A stretch of 64,000 nucleotides of DNA from a virus (Duplodnaviria; Caudoviricetes): positions 13,935 to 77,934 of IMG/VR virus record IMGVR_UViG_3300037448_000016; one strand, written 5' to 3'. A program made the translations under genes and the position numbers. Positions within the stretch are counted from its first letter, which is position 1. Each line of letters begins with the position of its first letter. The notes beneath the pieces are model-generated. The model was given only the letters and a program-made list of their open reading frames with translations. It searched no databases and had not been told where the DNA came from. Shown here piece after piece: positions 44,303-61,938 of this stretch.

Positions 44303-44912
44303 GGTGACGTCTCCTAGGTGAGCGGAACTCGCCGGGCGGTGCTTCCGCTTCCGGCGGTGAGGGTTTCCAGAGAGTGGGCGGCTGGTGACAGGACCGATCG
44401 TCCAATGCACCCCTCCACGGCGAGGCGGGCCCGCGAGCGGGACAGCGGTCGTCGTGGTGGTCACCGTCCAGCCGAGCGGGAATTGGCTCGACAGGTCCAT
44501 GAGTGGCAATTCGATGACGCACCTCCCGGTAGCGAAATCAGGGTGCCACAGCAACGGCCGAACGGGCGAGTACGGACACAGAAACGGCCCACCGGGGTCG
44601 AGTCCGGTGAGCCGTCCTGCCAGACAGATAACACGCTGTCAACCGTGGCGTTTACCGGCCGCTCGCCCTGTCCGCCGTGCGGCTACGATCCAGTCATTGA
44701 CCGGGCGCGATGTCGCAACGGTTTCCAGATCTGGGATCCTACACCGGATGGTGCCCGGAGCGCACCCCGCCGGGCCGGGTGGAACGACGGATCTGGAGCA
44801 CCACTCCATCACCGTCGAGTGCTGGGCCGCGATCCGGGTTCCACCCCGGGCCGACCGTATGGCGCTCAGTTCGCAGTCTCTGGCCTTGCGGCGTAGTGCT
44901 GCTCACCTTCTG

Positions 44913-45008
44913 CGTGCCCCTGCCGGTCTCGAACCGGCTCGACGGGTGCTCCACCGTCTTTAACCTAATGGGCGCGTCCGCCCGGGGCTTGCGACCGGCG
45001 GTAGGCAC
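44913..45008 (-). ncRNA. tRNA-like element (long variable arm, degenerate anticodon arm)
   Basis: GTGCCT/GGGCAC acceptor-like stem; T-arm GCCGG-TTCGAGA-CCGGC; GACGG/CCGTC arm. Confidence 0.55.
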
Positions 45009-45072
45009 CGGGAGGAACCGAAGTCCCCCATCGGGGAGACGCTATGCGCCCCGAACCCATACCACCGGCCCA

Positions 45073-45149
45073 CCAGGCACTGCCGTCCTCGGTCTCCGGG
45101 TCTGGAACCAGGTTCCTTTACGGCTGGACCTACACGCGGCAGTGCTTGG
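45073..45149 (-). ncRNA. Structured RNA with a long closing helix
   Basis: GCACTGCCG/CGGCAGTGC perfect 9-bp stem extended by CCA/TGG. Confidence 0.45.
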
Positions 45150-45150
45150 C

Positions 45151-45207
45151 TGGTGGAGCCCCAGGGAATCGAACCCCAGTCGGTTTCCGCCGAGATAACT
45201 CGGCCCC
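45151..45207 (-). ncRNA. Mini tRNA-Ala / tmRNA-TLD-like RNA (57 nt)
   Basis: 5' GGGGCC and 3' GGCTCC-A-CCA with G3:U70; T-loop TTCGATT. Confidence 0.6.
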
Positions 45208-45217
45208 CTGCTGCCAG

Positions 45218-45296
45218 CGTGCCCCTTGACCCTCAGCGTCCGCCGGAGGATCGCTCCAACGCTGCGAGGGTACAGCCGGTTGGGGCTGCGAGACAC
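45218..45296 (-). ncRNA. Multi-stem structured RNA with an acceptor-like stem
   Basis: GTGTCTC/GGGGCAC, CAGCC/GGCTG, CCCTC/GAGGG, AGCGT/ACGCT and GGAG/CTCC stems. Confidence 0.45.
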
Positions 45297-45333: not shown

Positions 45334-45840
45334 TCAATTGCCAATGCGGTCTCGCTTGTCCAGGTTGCAGCCCAAATGAGCCAGTTGGACATTGGCCAGC
45401 ACGTGCTTGCCACCGCGCGAAATCGGGAACCGGTGATCGAGGCTTTTGCTCGCTCGATCCGGATACTCCAGCGTCATATCCACCAGTCCGCCGCAGAGAC
45501 GGCACGTCCAGCCGTCGCGGCGGGCGACCTCCGTCAGCAGGATGCGCTCACCGGAGTCCATCTGTGCTCGGCGCCGGTGGTAGGCATCGCGGCGCCGGTC
45601 ATTCCAGCCACCAGCCGATTCGTACTCGGCCGCGTAGTCCCGAGGCGGACGTGACTCTTTCAGGTGGGTGTTGCAGAGACCTTTCGCGCGATGCGGCCGG
45701 TTGCAGGATTTCCGCGAGCAACGGCGGGGGTTCGCTCGCTCCTGGCATTGCTTGCAGCAGTACAGCCTGGGGCGGCCAGATCCGGTACGGAATGGGAGCA
45801 AATTGGCGCATGGAAAGGCTTGACAGGTCGTTGTCGTCAC
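45334..45840 (-). CDS. HNH endonuclease with N-terminal Zn-finger
   Basis: RDGWTCRLCG, SLDHRFPISRGG and NVQLAHLGCN. Confidence 0.9.
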   Translation of the reverse strand: MTTTTCQAFPCANLLPFRTGSGRPRLYCCKQCQERANPRRCSRKSCNRPHRAKGLCNTHLKESRPPRDYAAEYESAGGWNDRRRDAYHRRRAQMDSGERILLTEVARRDGWTCRLCGGLVDMTLEYPDRASKSLDHRFPISRGGKHVLANVQLAHLGCNLDKRDRIGN

Positions 45841-46616
45841 GGCTTCAGCCTACCAGTTCACGCTCCCCCGTGCGACGCCCCGACAATCAACTGACAACTG
45901 ACTATTTGAACCAACTTGTGGAAAAAGTGCTCTCCCCCTTAGGTCCAGGCGCGCGAGGCGGGGAGGGGGCGCCCCCCAGGGTGGGGCCCGAGCCGAGCCG
46001 GAGCCGCAGCCCCGAGGCGCCCTGTGGTCAGCCGCTTGACAAGCCGTGGTCAGCCGTGAGAGGGTGGCCCCATGCCGCAGTGAGGGGCACCCGGAAGGGG
46101 CTCGCACAGCAGCAGCAGCACCCCCGCTGCACCCCTGCACCGCACGGAGCCTCGCTCCCTCTGCACAGCACGGGTCCGGAGGGGCAGGCACCACAGCACG
46201 GCAAGGCAGGCTTGACAAGCCCCTGACAAGGGCTGGTAAGGTACGACCAGCACCACCGAGGACCGCACTACATGCAAGAGCCGTGTGCCGAAGGCGCCCG
46301 TGAGCGGACCCCCTGCGACAGGACCCCCTTGTCGCTAGCAGGGACCTACGCTCCGAGCCACGCTAGGCCGTACGGAGGGTGAGGGTTCCCAACGCTGAAA
46401 CGCGGGAACGCCGTAACCGACCACAGGGGAGTCCTGTGGGAGGGGCGTTCAAACCGGGCGGACGGAACGCGATCCACCCCCCCGGACCTACGGAACACGG
46501 TAGGCGGGCTGCGAGAGCCGCCGGGGGGGCTAGTCAACGGCTTGACAAGCCGCTGACAAGCACGCTAAGGTTCCACCACGACGACGACGCACCGACACCG
46601 CCCCTGGAGGCAACCA

Positions 46617-47162: not shown

Positions 47163-47211
47163 GGCCGGAGGACCGCGAACACGGCGGTACGGCTCGACAC
47201 CTCCTCCGGCC
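47163..47211 (+). repeat. Three-way-junction RNA motif, copy 1
   Basis: GGCCGGAGG-ACCGC(GAACACG)GCGGT-AC-GG(CTCGACA)CC-T-CCTCCGGCC. Confidence 0.8.
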
Positions 47212-47245
47212 ACTCGACCCACCAACGACGAAAGCGAGGCGCGAC

Positions 47246-47536
47246 ATGAGCGAACGGGTCAGCACGGGACGTGTCCGGCACCTGCTCAGCGAGGAGGTGG
47301 AACGGGCCGTCACGGAAGCGATCGAGTACGGCAAGGTACCGAGCAACGCCGTGGCTGCCACGATCGCATCGTGGTACCAGACGCCAGGGGGCCATGGGCT
47401 CACGTTCGCCCTGCTCCAACAGGGCAGCGAGGTGCTCCGCGAAGACCTGAGCGACGCCATCACGTCCGAGAGCGCCGAGAGCGCCGAGCACGACCGCCAC
47501 ATGTGGACTCTGAGCATGTGGATGGAAAGCCGCTGA
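47246..47536 (+). CDS. Hypothetical protein
   Basis: GAGG RBS; starts MSERVST. Confidence 0.65.
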   Translation: MSERVSTGRVRHLLSEEVERAVTEAIEYGKVPSNAVAATIASWYQTPGGHGLTFALLQQGSEVLREDLSDAITSESAESAEHDRHMWTLSMWMESR

Positions 47537-47596
47537 CAGCGACTTGACAACGCACTGACCAGCACGGTACGGTTCAACCACCGACGACAACGAGGA

Positions 47597-47884
47597 GTGA
47601 CCGTGAGCCACAGGTACGTGATGGACTTCCATCCACACGACGGAGCGCCGACCGGGCCGATGATGGAAGAGGTCAGCGAGAGCGAGGTTCTCGCCGGACG
47701 GTCCGGATCGGGTGAGGAGTTCCGCCGCCGGACCCGCAACGAAGGCGAGGAAAAGCCGCCCGTGGACGGCGGATCATGGGCCGACCTGTACGACGCCGAA
47801 GCGTGGGACGGCGTGTCCTACGGCTACCCGGTCTACCGGCTCACCTGGAACCGGAACCGATCGATCCACATCGAATCCCACTGA
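47597..47884 (+). CDS. Hypothetical protein
   Basis: GAGGAG RBS after a promoter. Confidence 0.65.
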   Translation: MTVSHRYVMDFHPHDGAPTGPMMEEVSESEVLAGRSGSGEEFRRRTRNEGEEKPPVDGGSWADLYDAEAWDGVSYGYPVYRLTWNRNRSIHIESH

Positions 47885-47890
47885 ACCCCA

Positions 47891-47941
47891 GCCTCTGGCA
47901 GCGCACCTCGACGGCGCTACGGCTCGAATCCGGCCAGGGGC
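47891..47941 (+). repeat. Three-way-junction RNA motif, copy 2
   Basis: GCCTCTGGC-AGCGC(ACCTCGACG)GCGCT-AC-GG(CTCGAAT)CC-G-GCCAGGGGC. Confidence 0.8.
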
Positions 47942-47973
47942 ACGCACACCACTCCGACAACGAAAGGCCCATC

Positions 47974-48189
47974 GTGATCAAGGTCATCGACTCCATCGTT
48001 CGGCTCAGGAGTTCCGTCAACGGAAACCCGCGCTACGAAATCACGTTCACCGACGGCACGGTTGCCCGTACTGCTTCCGATCACCAGTTCGCTACCTTCG
48101 TCGAGAACCAGGGAATGCGGAACGGCGACACGGTGCGGGTCGAGATCAACGGTAAGGGCACGATCTCGCACATGGAGCCGAAGTCCTGA
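47974..48189 (+). CDS. Small hypothetical protein
   Basis: GAAAGG RBS; SVNGNPRYEITF. Confidence 0.65.
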   Translation: MIKVIDSIVRLRSSVNGNPRYEITFTDGTVARTASDHQFATFVENQGMRNGDTVRVEINGKGTISHMEPKS

Positions 48190-48218
48190 CCACGGCAGCC
48201 GCCCCGACGACGAAAGGC

Positions 48219-48353
48219 ATGGCGATGCAACGGTATGACGTGCTAGACGACAATGGAGACGTCTTGGAGTCGTTCGATTCCTGGGCCCTGGCGAACATCA
48301 AGGCGCGAGAGCACAGATTCACGGTCCGCGACAACATGCCGGATGAGGACTGA
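48219..48353 (+). CDS. Small hypothetical protein (44 aa)
   Basis: GAAAGG RBS; MAMQRYDVLDD... Confidence 0.5.
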   Translation: MAMQRYDVLDDNGDVLESFDSWALANIKAREHRFTVRDNMPDED

Positions 48354-48424
48354 CCAGCAGTTGACAACGGACTGACCAGCACGGTACGGTTCAACCACCG
48401 ACGACGACGAAACGAGGCCACACA

Positions 48425-48739
48425 GTGAGAATGCATTTCGACAACGTCCGAGAGCGTGACCTGCGGGAAGCGTTCCAGGAAGCCGACATCCCGCACGCTT
48501 CGCTCACCATCAAGGGTGAGCATTCCAGCCGCTCGCACCGGACGGCTTTCGAGGTCCGGCTCACGGGTGACGGCATCTCCAACGGCCGGAAGACCCAAGA
48601 CGGGCAGGACTACGCCGCGACGTACGACGAGTGGGGCGAGTTCATCTCGCGGCTCTACGACCGCGACGTCACCGCGAAGATCGGCCCGTACACCTCCCGG
48701 GCCGACTTCCAAGACCGAACCGGCAGCCGGTACACCTGA
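48425..48739 (+). CDS. Hypothetical phage protein
   Basis: GAGG RBS after a promoter; AATYDEWG. Confidence 0.65.
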   Translation: MRMHFDNVRERDLREAFQEADIPHASLTIKGEHSSRSHRTAFEVRLTGDGISNGRKTQDGQDYAATYDEWGEFISRLYDRDVTAKIGPYTSRADFQDRTGSRYT

Positions 48740-48745
48740 AACCCG

Positions 48746-48794
48746 GCCTCTGGCACCGCGAACACGGCGGTACGGCTCGAATCCAGCCAGAGGC
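48746..48794 (+). repeat. Three-way-junction RNA motif, copy 3
   Basis: GCCTCTGGC-ACCGC..GCGGT-AC-GG(CTCGAAT)CC-A-GCCAGAGGC. Confidence 0.8.
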
Positions 48795-48851
48795 ACGCAA
48801 GGCAAGAGCGGAAGTCCTTGCCTCCCACCCCAACTCACCCAGGAGAGCACC

Positions 48852-49094
48852 ATGCGCTCACTGTCCAGCATTGCCAACGAGATCGAAATCCTATGGTCCG
48901 CGAAAGGTTCCGGCGTCAACTACGCGGCACGCCCCTACCTAGACGCCATGAAGACCCTGACCACGGTCGATGACCGGTACTACGACGACTCTGCCAAGTC
49001 GATCGTCCTCTACTTCCTGAGCAACGCTTCAGGGTTCCGGGGCGAACGCGCCAAGGAGATTAAGGCCGAACTGAAGTCCATGATCGGCAAGTAG
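48852..49094 (+). CDS. Small phage protein (80 aa)
   Basis: AGGAG RBS; ARPYLDAM...DSAKSIVLYFLSNA..FRGE.AK.IK.ELK. Confidence 0.75.
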   Translation: MRSLSSIANEIEILWSAKGSGVNYAARPYLDAMKTLTTVDDRYYDDSAKSIVLYFLSNASGFRGERAKEIKAELKSMIGK

Positions 49095-49100
49095 AACTCA

Positions 49101-49149
49101 GCCTGGCGGACCGCGAACACGGCGGTACGGCTCGACACCGCTGCCAGGC
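49101..49149 (+). repeat. Three-way-junction RNA motif, copy 4
   Basis: GCCTGGCGG-ACCGC..GCGGT-AC-GG(CTCGACA)CC-G-CTGCCAGGC. Confidence 0.8.
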
Positions 49150-49181
49150 ACGCACACCACCCCGACGACGAAAGGCGCATC

Positions 49182-49337
49182 ATGACCGAACAGGGCAAGT
49201 GGATCATGTGGGCCGATCCCAAGCGCGGCACTCAGCCGCTGGGAACGATCCTGTCCAGCGACGACGACACCATCACGTACCAACCGCGTTTCGGGCGGCC
49301 GATCACGGTCAAGCGGGCCGAAGTGAAGATCCGCTGA
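49182..49337 (+). CDS. Small hypothetical protein (51 aa)
   Basis: GAAAGG RBS; MTEQGKW... Confidence 0.55.
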   Translation: MTEQGKWIMWADPKRGTQPLGTILSSDDDTITYQPRFGRPITVKRAEVKIR

Positions 49338-49471
49338 TGCCACGTCCAGCCGGATCATTGGCCACGTGCCCGACCTGCAACGCCATCGTGCTGATTACGC
49401 CCAAGGGCGTGGTCAAGCATTTCCCGGGAGCGACCGACTGCCCCACCGAGGGCACTACGCTTAACCAGTAG
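49337..49471 (+). CDS. Small Zn-ribbon-like protein (44 aa)
   Basis: TGATG coupling; CPTC...H...C. Confidence 0.55.
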   Translation: MPRPAGSLATCPTCNAIVLITPKGVVKHFPGATDCPTEGTTLNQ

Positions 49472-49507
49472 TTGACAACTCCCTGACAACTCCGATAGCC
49501 TCCCATC

Positions 49508-50155
49508 ATGACGACGACGAAAGGTGCTCCCGTGGCAACGCTGGCCGACATCCTCCCCTCCGAGACTGCGATGGTCCGGAACATCCTGAAGGTCTACCGT
49601 TCCGCCACCGACGCGCAACGAGGCCAGGGAATGGCCTGGTACGACGAGGCGCACAGCCTGGCGGTTGCGCTGGACCCGGAGAACCCGATGCGAGCAGCCG
49701 GTGTCATCTCGGCGCTCTCCCCTCGGATCCAGTGGTCGTACAACCAGAAGTTGGCCATCCGGCTGTACGCCGACGGCGTGCTGACCGGCGGCTGCCTGCC
49801 TGCGAACTACACGAAGGCGAACAAGATCTTTAACGGGGCCGACGTGATGGCCACGCTGAAAGCACCCAAGACGCAAGCGTTCGCCGCGACCATTGCCAAT
49901 CCGGCAGGCGATCACGCTCCCGTGATCGACCGTCACGCTTTCAGCGTTGCCGTCGGATACGCCAGTACCGACGACGACACGTCGATCCTGGGACGCAAGG
50001 GGGCGTACGACCTGTTCGCCGGGGCGTACCGGAAGGCAGCGAAGCGGGCCGGGATCAGCCCGAGCCAGATGCAGGCCGTGACCTGGGTCGTGTGGCGCCA
50101 GACCGCGATCCGATACTCCGCTTCCATCCTCCGCGAGGAAACGGTTGCTGCCTGA
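49508..50155 (+). CDS. Phage protein with HhH-GPD/glycosylase-like features
   Basis: GMAWY, AAGVISALSP, KTQAF, PVIDRHA and QMQAVTW. Confidence 0.65.
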   Translation: MTTTKGAPVATLADILPSETAMVRNILKVYRSATDAQRGQGMAWYDEAHSLAVALDPENPMRAAGVISALSPRIQWSYNQKLAIRLYADGVLTGGCLPANYTKANKIFNGADVMATLKAPKTQAFAATIANPAGDHAPVIDRHAFSVAVGYASTDDDTSILGRKGAYDLFAGAYRKAAKRAGISPSQMQAVTWVVWRQTAIRYSASILREETVAA

Positions 50156-50445
50156 TGGTGGACGTCACTAAACCCGAAGGGTACCGGCTGGTCATCGACC
50201 ACCCGAAGCCCCAGGCCGAAGATCAAAACCAGTACGTCGTGGTCCTGCGACGTGACCGGCCCGGGGCGAAAGCCGTCCGGATCGGCAAGGAACCGCTGAC
50301 GAAGCGGAGCAAGCGTGCCAGACGACGTCAGGCCATCAGGATCGGTACCGCGATCGTGATGGCCGACAAGGAAGCACGGATCAGGGTAATCAAGGCGACG
50401 ATCGCCAGTCTGTCGGTCGTGCCTGACATCGACAGAGCGGAGTGA
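50155..50445 (+). CDS. Basic hypothetical protein
   Basis: TGATG coupling, 96 aa. Confidence 0.55.
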   Translation: MVDVTKPEGYRLVIDHPKPQAEDQNQYVVVLRRDRPGAKAVRIGKEPLTKRSKRARRRQAIRIGTAIVMADKEARIRVIKATIASLSVVPDIDRAE

Positions 50446-50702
50446 TCATGAGCGCACGCTTCAAGGTGAAGCACCACGACACCTGGTACGACGTGAAAGA
50501 CGTCGGCAAGGAGGAGGCATTCGACAGGGGGTGTCCGGACGCAACGGTCAAGTTGACCGGCCGCCATGAAACCACTTACGGCACCATGACCGGGATGCGC
50601 GACGAGGTCCGGGTGCCGGGCACATCCGACGGATTGCGTGGATACCCACGCACCTTCCATGGGTTCGATTCGGGCCCGCTGGAGGGGTACTACATCCCCT
50701 GA
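50442..50702 (+). CDS. Hypothetical protein
   Basis: GTGA overlap, 86 aa. Confidence 0.6.
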   Translation: MIMSARFKVKHHDTWYDVKDVGKEEAFDRGCPDATVKLTGRHETTYGTMTGMRDEVRVPGTSDGLRGYPRTFHGFDSGPLEGYYIP

Positions 50703-50708
50703 CCGACA

Positions 50709-50770
50709 GACCGGAGGACCGCGAGCCAGTTCACTGGCTCTGGCGGTACGGCTCGAAACCTCCTCCGGTC
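50709..50770 (+). repeat. Three-way-junction RNA motif, copy 5 (P2 loop replaced by an extra hairpin)
   Basis: GACCGGAGG-ACCGC-GAGCCAG(TTCA)CTGGCTC-TG-GCGGT-AC-GG(CTCGAAA)CC-T-CCTCCGGTC. Confidence 0.8.
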
Positions 50771-50841
50771 ACGGGTGATCGGATCGGCCGATCACCATCC
50801 AGCAGTTGACAACTCGTTGACCACTATGGAAAGATGGAGCC

Positions 50842-51327
50842 ATGACGACGACACAGGCAATCACCATCGTGAGCAAGCAGTGCGGCAAGTTCCGGGGGCA
50901 CCCTGGATCGTGCGACGACACGATCGAGTTCACCAGCCCGCACGCCGAAGATCAGTGCGTGGTCGGCATCCCGGTACTGAAGCACAATGACCGGGTGCTG
51001 ATCGACGGCATGGCCAATGGCTACGCGGTCCGCGCCGTGGTCACCACGCTCGGCGGGTACGGCGCCAGCAACCGCTCGTACGAGGGGCCGGACGGAATGG
51101 CCCGGTACCTGAAGGCGCTGGAGCGCAACGAGAAGCACGGCGGTGCGTGGATCAGCGTCGAGGCCACCGTGATCTCGGCCTACCGCGAAGCAGAGAGGCC
51201 GCGCACGATCGTCAAGATCGGCGGCCTGGTCCGGATCGTCTCGGACGTGCCGGGTGAAGGCGGCATCTACCGGCTGGAGTTTTACAGCCAGTGGGACCAC
51301 CACAACGTGCTCCTGGTCCGCGCCTGA
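50842..51327 (+). CDS. Hypothetical protein
   Basis: 161 aa, downstream of the promoter at 50806. Confidence 0.65.
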   Translation: MTTTQAITIVSKQCGKFRGHPGSCDDTIEFTSPHAEDQCVVGIPVLKHNDRVLIDGMANGYAVRAVVTTLGGYGASNRSYEGPDGMARYLKALERNEKHGGAWISVEATVISAYREAERPRTIVKIGGLVRIVSDVPGEGGIYRLEFYSQWDHHNVLLVRA

Positions 51328-58501: not shown

Positions 58502-58737
58502 CAGAACTGGGCCTGCCCCGGCCGCTGGCAGGTCGCGTGGACCTCGGTGCCGCCGTACGGCGAGTAGGGGATCGAGTCGTTCCGCCCGTCCCGGTTGAAC
58601 CGGCGCCCGCTCTCGACCACGATCATGGTCTTGGTGACCCGCTTGATCACCGAGTGCCGATGCACCGGCCGGTCGGTCCCCTGTCCGGTGATGCAGACCC
58701 GCTGGCCGACCACCTGCTTCTCCTGCTCGATCATCAT
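58501..58737 (-). CDS. Small hypothetical protein
   Basis: ATGA overlap with the ArdC-like gene; IKRVTKTMIVV. Confidence 0.6.
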   Translation of the reverse strand: MMIEQEKQVVGQRVCITGQGTDRPVHRHSVIKRVTKTMIVVESGRRFNRDGRNDSIPYSPYGGTEVHATCQRPGQAQF

Positions 58738-59597
58738 GCCCCTTCGATCTGCGCGATCAGCGCCTTGGCTGTCCGCTGGACCCGCTGCCCGGCGGCCATG
58801 ACCTTGTCGACGCCGCCCCAGTGCGCGACGTAGGAGAAAGACGACGTGCCCATTTCCATCCCGAGCACCCGTCCGACCACGTACGCCACCGATTCGGCCT
58901 CCACTTCGGCCTCGCCCCGGTGCTGCTGGTACGAGTAGTCCTCCGCGAGGTGGCCGAGCATCACGTGTGCGATCTCGTGCAGCAGGGTGGCCACGGTCTG
59001 CGGCTCGTCCCCGGCGAACCGCGAGGAGATCACGATGTTTTTCAGCACGCCGTCGGTGTGCCCGTCTGCCGTGCCCGAGTCGCCGTAGGCCCACGGGTAA
59101 CCGGTCCCGGCCGCGATCCCGGCCAGCGTGACCAGCAGACCTTCCGGCACGGACGTCGCCACGGTGCCGTGGTCGACCGTGGGCAGCGGCTCGCCGTCGG
59201 TCTGCGAGACGTCGAACACGGTGGCCATCTTCCAGCCGACCAGTTTCGTGGCCTTCGGGTCACCGTTGGCCCGCTTAACGTCGTCCGGCACGATGACCGG
59301 CGCGAGCACCTTGAAGCCGGTCGATCCTTTGATCACGTTCCGGCCCGCCTTCTTCCAGACGCCGAAACCGGCGAACCGGGTGACCTCCATGTTGCGGATC
59401 GCGGCCTGCCGCAGCAGGAACAGGACGTTGCCGAACGAGTAGGAGTGGAACTGGGCGCTGAAGTCCAGCACGCGGACCCAGTCCTCGGAGGAACGGATTT
59501 CGGCCACCTGCGCCGCAATGGCGTTGTGGGCCTCGTCGAGCCGGGCGGCCTTCTCTTCGGCGCTCAGCGGGGTGTATGCCTTCGTTTTCGTCGTCAT
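58734..59597 (-). CDS. ArdC-like ssDNA-binding / antirestriction protein with HExxH metalloprotease-like domain
   Basis: YSFGNVLFL, FAGFGVWKKAGRNVIKG, VFDVSQTDG, LLHEIAH and EVEAESVAY. Confidence 0.8.
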   Translation of the reverse strand: MTTKTKAYTPLSAEEKAARLDEAHNAIAAQVAEIRSSEDWVRVLDFSAQFHSYSFGNVLFLLRQAAIRNMEVTRFAGFGVWKKAGRNVIKGSTGFKVLAPVIVPDDVKRANGDPKATKLVGWKMATVFDVSQTDGEPLPTVDHGTVATSVPEGLLVTLAGIAAGTGYPWAYGDSGTADGHTDGVLKNIVISSRFAGDEPQTVATLLHEIAHVMLGHLAEDYSYQQHRGEAEVEAESVAYVVGRVLGMEMGTSSFSYVAHWGGVDKVMAAGQRVQRTAKALIAQIEGA

Positions 59598-61678: not shown

Positions 61679-61938
61679 TGGGCCTTGTCACCGAGATCGA
61701 GCGCCAGCGTGAACCGGACGTCGGGCCGCAGGGTGTCCTGAAGGCCGTTCAGAAGGCGCTTTTCGACGAGAAGCCGAAAGACTTCTGGCAGGCATCGGAG
61801 ATCGCCCGCCGGGAGATCCTGAACGCGAAGTGGACGCCCGGTCACGATTTCGGTCAGGGCCGTCAGTACGTCTGCGAGATTACGTCAGCGTCTGGGACAT
61901 TCATTCTGCGCGCCGTCATCCCGGAGGCGTCCCGGTAA
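61678..61938 (+). CDS. Hypothetical protein
   Basis: 86-aa coupled ORF. Confidence 0.6.
   Translation: MGLVTEIERQREPDVGPQGVLKAVQKALFDEKPKDFWQASEIARREILNAKWTPGHDFGQGRQYVCEITSASGTFILRAVIPEASR

Follow-up and report, generated by a model that had tools for sequence, protein, structure and literature searches.

What purpose is served by a short folded repeat that recurs five times between the early genes of a phage? The question arises from a stretch of 64,000 nucleotides (nt), hereafter the window, that comprises bases 13935-77934 of the 77,934-base-pair (bp) IMG/VR virus record IMGVR_UViG_3300037448_000016 (Duplodnaviria; Caudoviricetes). The record has direct terminal repeats, is estimated to be complete, and has a guanine-plus-cytosine (GC) content of 66%. 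Its terminase, portal, and capsid genes occupy a long minus-strand arm, and a plus-strand arm of small genes begins near 44.7 kb. The large terminase shares no more than 55% identity with any terminase of a cultured phage, the nearest being those of Arthrobacter phages, followed by Streptomyces and Gordonia phages; judged by this identity, the phage is an actinophage without close cultured kin. In this study, the repeat, about 50 bases long with a predicted branched fold, is tentatively read as a cis-acting intercistronic element that defines or protects mRNA ends, possibly through mimicry of a tRNA minihelix. We give this reading somewhat less than an even chance.

A covariance model, R1, was built from the five copies in the window and run without filters. 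It scores these copies at 68-82 bits; the runner-up site in the window reaches 16.7 bits, and the best site in the other 14 kb of the genome reaches 15.4 bits. At no more than one mismatch, GCGSTACGGCTCGA is found at five places only, all of which are repeat copies. The five copies are far beyond chance. They have a common layout: an outer stem of 9 bp (P1), a second stem (P2, ACCGC/GCGGT), the dinucleotide AC, a third arm (P3 with its loop, GG-CTCGAMW-CC), one nucleotide, and the returning strand of P1 (P1'). In copy 1 (plus strand, 47163..47211; 81 bits; minimum free energy (MFE) -28.0, z-score -3.4), P1 pairs 47163-71 with 47203-11, P2 pairs 47172-76 with 47184-88 around the loop GAACACG, and P3 pairs 47191-92 with 47200-01 around the loop CTCGACA. 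Copy 2 (plus strand, 47891..47941; 71.8 bits) has AGCGC/GCGCT as P2, a compensated C-G to G-C change relative to ACCGC/GCGGT; its P2 loop of 9 nt, ACCTCGACG, has CTCGA inside, and its P3 can extend to 3 bp. Copy 3 (plus strand, 48746..48794) scores 82.5 bits. Copy 4 (plus strand, 49101..49149; 82.2 bits) has an ensemble frequency of 0.77, a P1 of GCCTGGCGG/CTGCCAGGC with one G.U pair, and a P3 that can likewise extend to 3 bp. In copy 5 (plus strand, 50709..50770; 68.4 bits; MFE -41.1), a 20-nt insert that folds as its own 7-bp hairpin replaces the P2 loop. Sequence, fold, and R1 scores bear out the preliminary description of this region with respect to the five copies, their coordinates and layout, the compensatory change in P2 of copy 2, and the extra hairpin of copy 5.

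All copies lie on the coding strand, in the same orientation as the genes, and each follows a stop codon: TAA at 47154-56, TGA at 47882-84, TGA at 48737-39, TAG at 49092-94, and TGA at 50700-02 for copies 1 to 5, respectively. According to the table of open reading frames (ORFs), the gap from stop codon to P1 is exactly 6 nt in 5/5 copies; the claim of an after-stop placement holds, and the range of 5-10 nt given with it does not. The spacers within this gap differ (GGCACA, ACCCCA, AACCCG, AACTCA, and CCGACA). The 3' flanks after P1 are, in the same order, ACTCGACC, ACGCACAC, ACGCAAGG, ACGCACAC, and ACGGGTGA, with no U-tract.

A further good copy is found in a 19.5-kb viral contig with a GC content of 57% (IMGVR_UViG_3300020045_008768, hereafter G006) at L383:17193-17241, with a score of 53 bits. 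It has the P2 stem of copy 2, the P2 loop ACACACG, and J23 and P3 identical to those of copy 1; its P1 is different in sequence and fully paired. This copy follows an ORF of 77 codons, 7 nt beyond its stop codon, where an array of small genes begins; no relatives were found for the gene adjoining the copy. The two phages have no common protein at E 1e-4. The terminase of G006 is nearest to those of Microbacterium and Clavibacter phages, which suggests a different actinophage lineage. The next intergenic region of G006 (L383:17672-17725) also folds as a three-way junction, with P1 CCCCTA/TAGGGG, a P2 of 4 bp, and a P3 of 6 bp carrying the loop CUCGUGA, so that P1 and P3 together have 12 bp; its z-score is not significant, and it may be a distant relative of the repeat.

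The window also holds a diverged sixth copy on the plus strand at 46477..46529, for which the minimum-energy fold (MFE -35.9) is three-way and R1 gives 9.9 bits only. Its P1 of 9 bp (CCCCCCCGG/CCGGGGGGG) is unlike the other copies in sequence, and its P2 is a different stem (CCTAC/GTAGG) with nearly the same loop, GGAACACG. P3 is GGC/GCC, 3 bp long, with the loop TGCGAGA (UGCGAGA on a C-G pair). This decayed copy does not lie 6 nt after a clear ORF stop; it is 12 nt upstream of a candidate promoter at 46542. The region between the candidate promoter at 46212 and this copy (46250-46480) contains no ORF over about 37 codons and may give a short non-coding transcript or hold a small-peptide gene.

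Base pairs were counted on the six good copies (the five in the window and that of G006) aligned to the model, an alignment that leans towards the structure. All 95 cells are standard pairs, and changes on both sides occur at 7/9 P1 pairs and 1/5 P2 pairs. No shuffle reaches the observed pairing score; when the partner strand is slid by 1-3 columns, every measure worsens and pairing falls to 34-50%. Between copies, identity is lowest in P1 (about 50%) and higher in the P2 stems (89%) and in J23, P3, and the loop (91%). P1 is thus kept only as a helix, and the side arm is kept as sequence. By P1 sequence, the window copies form three types (1 and 5; 2 and 3; 4); when G006 and the decayed copy are counted as well, the P1 place is occupied by five distinct helices, each of 8-9 bp. 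These comparisons indicate that the repeat structure is under selection. The preliminary description had called the motif covarying, which is true to a strong degree of P1, weakly of P2 (one pair), and not of P3. The outer stems of the fold, the placement, the orientation, and the invariant core as opposed to the variable P1 are directly supported. The stems of the repeat include three G.U pairs and no A.C pair, and because of this, the uniform orientation, and the fixed distance from the stop codon, the repeat is read as plus-strand RNA.

The order of genes and candidate promoters bears on whether the repeat stops transcription. A candidate sigma-70-like promoter on the plus strand at 47544..47574 (TTGACA, 18 nt, TAnnnT) is a consensus match and presumably functions as a promoter; other candidates of the same family start at 46212, 46542, 48361, 49472, 50806, and 51389, and further along the plus-strand arm. 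The region reads promoter, gene, repeat 1, gene, promoter, gene, repeat 2, two genes, promoter, and continues with gene, repeat 3, gene, repeat 4, two genes, promoter, three genes, repeat 5, hairpin, and promoter. Copies 1-4 lie inside operons, and because no promoter of the family precedes the next genes, these genes can be transcribed only by read-through of the repeat. That gene order excludes a strong terminator. T-rich-run hairpins occur directly before promoters in the same arm, after the stops at 61938 and 62675, and plain hairpins follow copy 3 (48797-48822, 2 nt after it) and copy 5 (50773-50798, with the promoter at 50806 next). Because the arm has these T-rich hairpins elsewhere and separate hairpins after copies 3 and 5, the repeat is not the phage's usual terminator. 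An ordinary terminator role is unlikely, in agreement with the earlier argument from the missing U-tract.

A partial terminator or attenuator without a U-tract would need only that polymerase stop at a fraction of passages, perhaps with NusG, NusA, or Rho, leaving less distal transcript. Its placement directly after stop codons is that of terminators, copy 5 and the diverged copy stand just before promoters, and a terminator scan found no U-tract terminator on the plus strand between 45.8 and 53.6 kb. However, purified mycobacterial RNA polymerase needs a U-tract, and U-less hairpins are not rescued by NusA or NusG (PMC3993855). The CACGCACACC after P1 would form a strong RNA-DNA hybrid, and the read-through of genes after copies 1-4, the T-rich hairpins used elsewhere, and the second hairpin added after copies 3 and 5 likewise argue against attenuation, which moreover leaves unexplained an invariant side arm common to an unrelated phage. 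We regard it as unlikely. Like the U-less GC hairpins of actinobacteria and actinophages (I-shaped terminators; the phiC31 early terminators), the repeat is GC-rich and lies a few nt after a stop; unlike them, it is branched, carries an invariant side arm, and has a position within operons at which termination would shut off the genes downstream.

IMG/VR contains relatives by terminase (65-89% identity), of which G001 (80.7 kb, complete) and G003 extend over the matching early region. Both of these lack the repeat, and helicase relatives are distant phages only, again without it. As for covariation in homologues, the only outside copy, that of G006, adds compensated P1 and P2 changes, and G001 and G003 are without the motif. 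The early regions of these two relatives (L165:1132-4700 in G001 and L135:3026-5892 in G003) have promoter families of their own and also their own families of post-stop GC hairpins, in which loops and tails are conserved; gene order differs between relatives. G001 has a family of GC hairpins of 10-11 bp with a conserved loop and tail (GTAGCATCCAA), which stand 5-6 nt after stop codons in 4/5 copies with the upstream flank shown and about 2 nt after in the fifth; some are followed by a leader and gene, others by a promoter. G003 has its own simple GC hairpins with no U run, a few nt after stop codons. On this comparison, the post-stop hairpin is a conserved feature of the group, and its branched form would have been elaborated here and, independently, in G006. 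Since the plain hairpins of G001 and G003 stand at matching places, the repeat may be an elaborated form of an element with a generic post-stop hairpin role. The covarying scaffold with an invariant 12-nt arm is common to two unrelated phages without a common protein, and this suggests that a host factor reads the arm.

In the intercistronic reading that we tentatively favor, the repeat would be transcribed from sigma-70-like promoters within early polycistronic transcripts and would fold once the ribosome leaves the stop codon 6 nt upstream. The folded repeat would then split the operon into a promoter-proximal and a distal segment by fixing where RNA ends lie and shielding them. With P1 (9 bp) stacked on P2, the fold would be a GC-rich block against 3'-to-5' exonucleases, and the C-rich single strands flanking the repeat would be the places of endonuclease cuts; the proximal cistron would become a separately stable mRNA, and transcription would continue into the distal cistrons. 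The invariant arm UACGGCUCGA..CC would be the sequence-specific part. We infer both the action as RNA and every nuclease step.

Folded repeats after stop codons between phage early genes are an already known kind of element. In the T7 early region, the RNase III sites R0.3 to R1.3 cut host-transcribed polycistronic RNA into mRNAs that are stabilized by 3' hairpins, and there, as here, several copies of one folded RNA lie between early-operon genes. The T7 sites are long, irregular duplexes (about 20 bp or longer) that contain an internal loop, whereas the repeat has a side arm and a combined P1 and P2 of 14 bp in copies 1-4, exceeding 21 bp only in copy 5, which is marginal against the T7-type geometry of about two duplex turns. 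The repeat has no sequence similarity to the T7 sites, and nothing links it to RNase III. Intercistronic stabilizer hairpins and repetitive extragenic palindromic (REP) elements, such as the malE-malF REP and those of Rhodobacter puf, lengthen the life of the upstream segment, and the repeat is like them in being repeated, folded, and located downstream of stop codons within operons. Host chromosomes carry REP elements at many places, in association with RAYT transposases; for the repeat, neither chromosomal spread nor a RAYT transposase was seen.

The third arm raises the possibility of tRNA mimicry. P1 and P3 (9 + 1 + 2 = 12 layers, with a 7-nt T-like loop and a first pair G-C, then A-C) would imitate an acceptor/T-arm minihelix, and such a mimic would be recognized by RNase P and RNase Z. 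Hairpins made of an acceptor stem, a T stem, and a T loop are efficient RNase P substrates, and phage RNAs and operon mRNAs are also RNase P targets (review PMC11143913). An RNase P minihelix was taken to need about 12 stacked bp from the cleavage site to the T loop and a single-stranded 3' end, ideally RCCA; the stack of the repeat consists of the 9 bp of P1, one pair or mismatch, and the 2 bp of P3, and its 3' flank is A-C-N-N, not ACCA. The T arm used for comparison has a stem of 5 bp whose 7-nt loop (U54-U55-C56-R57-A58) sits on the pair G53-C61; in 6/6 good copies, the loop CUCGAMW stands on a G-C closing pair. With minihelix or tRNA-like signals (mitochondrial punctuation, plant t-elements, mascRNA), the repeat has in common the predicted 12-layer stack, the 7-nt N-U-C-G-A-N-N loop closed by a G-C pair, a G-C first pair with unpaired A-C after it, the location between cistrons, and an expendable arm at the place of the rest of the tRNA. 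It departs from them in having C rather than U at loop position 1 and a T stem of 2-3 rather than 5 bp, and in lacking both a D-loop partner and CCA.

The specific RNase P/Z version of the end-defining element is a doubtful one, and we hold it at about the same low level as the attenuator. The same low level applies to full tRNA-style punctuation, in which host RNase P and RNase Z would cut minimal acceptor/T-arm mimics from early RNAs and so split operons; the five excised RNAs of about 50 nt, together with the modules at 44.9-45.2 kb, may in that case be decoys for host tRNA-binding factors. These modules are in a gene-free region (44900-45230, minus strand) downstream of minus-strand TTGACA boxes, where two tRNA-like modules have canonical T arms (GGTTCGAGACC and GGTTCGATTCC). 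One ends in GCUCC-ACCA, has a G.U at the third pair, and finds its best Rfam match in mascRNA (20 bits, E 0.8). The other is a D-armless tRNA according to the mitochondrial mode of ARAGORN and is followed by GGGGC-ACGCA, the 3' flank being as in repeats 2-4. ARAGORN calls minus-strand sites at 44.9-45.2 kb in its relaxed and mitochondrial modes, and neither module at 44900-45230 in its default mode.

A related proposal makes the excised RNA of about 50 nt the product itself, a small tRNA-like decoy or sponge delivered in five doses from early transcripts. The multiple copies in the earliest transcripts, the minihelix-like geometry, and the minus-strand non-coding locus at 44.9-45.2 kb with its two better tRNA-like modules would agree with this, but nothing indicates that the RNA is excised, copies 2 and 5 have not kept the P2 loop, which makes an anticodon-type decoy unlikely, and no program used recognizes the copies as tRNA-like. 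Of all the explanations considered, we find this the hardest to credit.

Several results weigh against the repeat as an element that defines or protects mRNA ends, in particular by tRNA mimicry. P3, with its two G-C pairs, is invariant and so offers zero covariation; because it never varies, the third arm is a prediction, and a P1-P2 hairpin with a conserved 3' bulge would account for the region equally well. The T-loop-like third arm proposed in the preliminary description consequently lacks covariation support, and the tRNA-elbow likeness proposed there fared no better: the Rfam tRNA and transfer-messenger RNA (tmRNA) models miss the repeats at E up to 10, and ARAGORN calls none in its default, relaxed, mitochondrial, or tmRNA modes. 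Loop position 54 is C (U54 in tRNA), P3 has 2-3 bp, the decayed copy has a different P3 loop, and CCA follows P1 in 0 copies. The known instances are seven only (the five, the decayed copy, and that of G006), and because the five window copies represent three P1 types, the cell counts overstate the number of independent compensatory events. The two DNA strands fold with similar energies, which are compatible with a DNA-level role. The relatives manage with plain hairpins, and the invariant arm may serve a purpose other than end protection. Finally, the sole public sequencing run that contains the DNA of this phage is a soil DNA run.

A further possibility is binding. The invariant arm UACGGCUCGA on its variable scaffold may be a site for a regulatory protein or for RNA polymerase, acting on elongation in put- or nut-like antitermination, or repressing or enhancing translation of the adjoining cistron. 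An invariant loop and junction on a freely covarying stem are consistent with this, as are the second CUCGA in the P2 loop of copy 2, the two repeats immediately before hairpins that they could modulate, and the conservation of the core across unrelated phages, which points to a host partner. The two-stem put-type antiterminator RNA of HK022, which lies upstream of terminators and works in cis on RNA polymerase, was compared for placement alone; a hairpin follows 2/5 copies. Against it, the two phages share no protein and so offer no candidate for a phage partner, a processive antiterminator would have no need of five copies in 3.6 kb, and the relatives lack the motif. We rate this explanation as a little less probable than attenuation.

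The repeat could also act as DNA, either as a hairpin recombination or cassette-boundary site or as a selfish miniature repeat spreading between phages. It punctuates a small-gene array, both strands can fold, gene order differs between relatives, and a core of about 45 nt in two otherwise dissimilar phages is what horizontal spread would leave. As in integron attC sites, hairpins with conserved structure and variable sequence follow promoterless array genes. Unlike attC, however, the repeat has no R/L core boxes or other attC-type core sites and no host copies, its most conserved part is an internal arm, and the phage has no integrase. A protein domain search found no RNA-processing enzyme, integrase, or Y1 transposase encoded by the phage, and the complete genome lacks a tyrosine recombinase. 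The stems that would be terminal repeats differ between copies, and the strict orientation, the exact 6-nt stop distance, and the three G.U pairs against no A.C pair fit an RNA role better.

Pattern scans (five of IMG/VR, one of metagenome contigs, and one of prokaryote genomes) gave one true copy among the matches listed, that of G006, and otherwise chance matches in coding DNA; the rarity holds for near-exact cores only. The prokaryote scan (185,579 genomes, one per species) gave 41 matches, none of which folds as the repeat. With the region and with single copies as queries, megablast and blastn found no real match in 50,697 phage records, and R1 found only a chance 18-bit match inside a gene in the nearest cultured phages (Isolde, Lifes, CMP1, and Kromp). 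The absence of a real copy from the prokaryote, metagenome, and cultured-phage searches, among the matches listed, argues against a spreading DNA element, which we consider improbable. The recombination of single-stranded DNA cassettes suggested in the preliminary description finds no support in the same results, there being neither tyrosine recombinase nor Y1 transposase in the phage nor a real copy in the prokaryote scan.

The description of the motif as belonging to no known family was upheld: in an Rfam 15 search, no family reached its gathering threshold anywhere in the window, and the region 46.5-51.5 kb was free of matches even when E was allowed up to 10. No published account of the motif was found in a literature search, and the motif is new in that no Rfam family, publication, or cultured phage was found with it. 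Known classes were also considered and rejected. A self-cleaving ribozyme was dismissed for want of an Rfam match and with a junction almost free of unpaired bases. As a sigma-70 promoter, the repeat has TACGGC without the final T and no -35 match at 17-18 nt; as an extracytoplasmic function (ECF)-type promoter, it misses GAAC in copies 2 and 5; and as a dimeric DNA operator, it has half-sites spaced by 7, 9, or 20 nt. Integron attC was rejected on the absence of PF00589 from the complete genome (controls positive), the differing P1 ends, and the lack of GTTRRRY, and a REP/RAYT-type repeat was rejected on the absence of PF01797 and of any real chromosomal copy in the prokaryote scan.

The shaping of early transcripts in actinophages and the role of U-less post-stop hairpins are poorly known, and the repeat is a compact, mutable object on which to test them. 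If the factor that reads the arm were the tRNA-processing machinery, the repeat would be a phage counterpart of mitochondrial tRNA punctuation. If its role were end protection or attenuation, operon expression in high-GC hosts could be tuned with it as a portable insulator.

The genes after repeats 1, 2, and 4 are preceded by a leader, CAC(G)CACC..CGACGACGAAAGG, on the plus strand at 47212..47245, 47942-47973, and 49150-49181, with 32-34 nt from P1' to the start codon; the GACGACGA-AGG leader is likewise found downstream of promoters. More generally, a purine-rich leader (ACCACC..CGACGACGAAAGG) lies 5-8 nt before many early start codons, after promoter or repeat alike. Its sites are 47226-47245, 47582-47602, 47955-47973, 48205-48224, 48399-48424, 49163-49181, and 49512-49532, and we take it to be reminiscent of the start-associated sequences in Cluster K mycobacteriophages. 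At 49472-49510 and 50806-50844, ATG stands 6-7 nt after the -10 box (TAGCCT..ATG and AAAGAT..ATG), and the transcripts from these two promoters may be leaderless. In G003, promoters are directly followed by ATGACGACGAC, which suggests leaderless mRNAs.

Two resemblances to -10 regions were observed, both possibly due to chance. The -10 regions at 47559-47581 and 48376-48398 (CACGG-TACGGTTC-AACC) resemble the repeat core (CACGGCGG-TACGGCTCGAATCC), and the hairpin tail of G001 (GTAGCATCC) resembles the -10 box of that phage (TAGCGT/TAGAGT).

Proteins encoded near the repeats are small and without assigned function, except a DUF7178 protein and an SF2 helicase. Elsewhere in the window, an HNH endonuclease gene lies at 45334-45840 on the minus strand, and an ArdC-N-like protein with a possible anti-restriction role is encoded at 58734-59597, also on the minus strand. 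The terminase of G006 (L383:8457-11108) contains a LAGLIDADG domain, probably as part of an intein, and in two relatives of the phage studied here (L139 and L140), the terminase matches are about 600 nt longer than the others.

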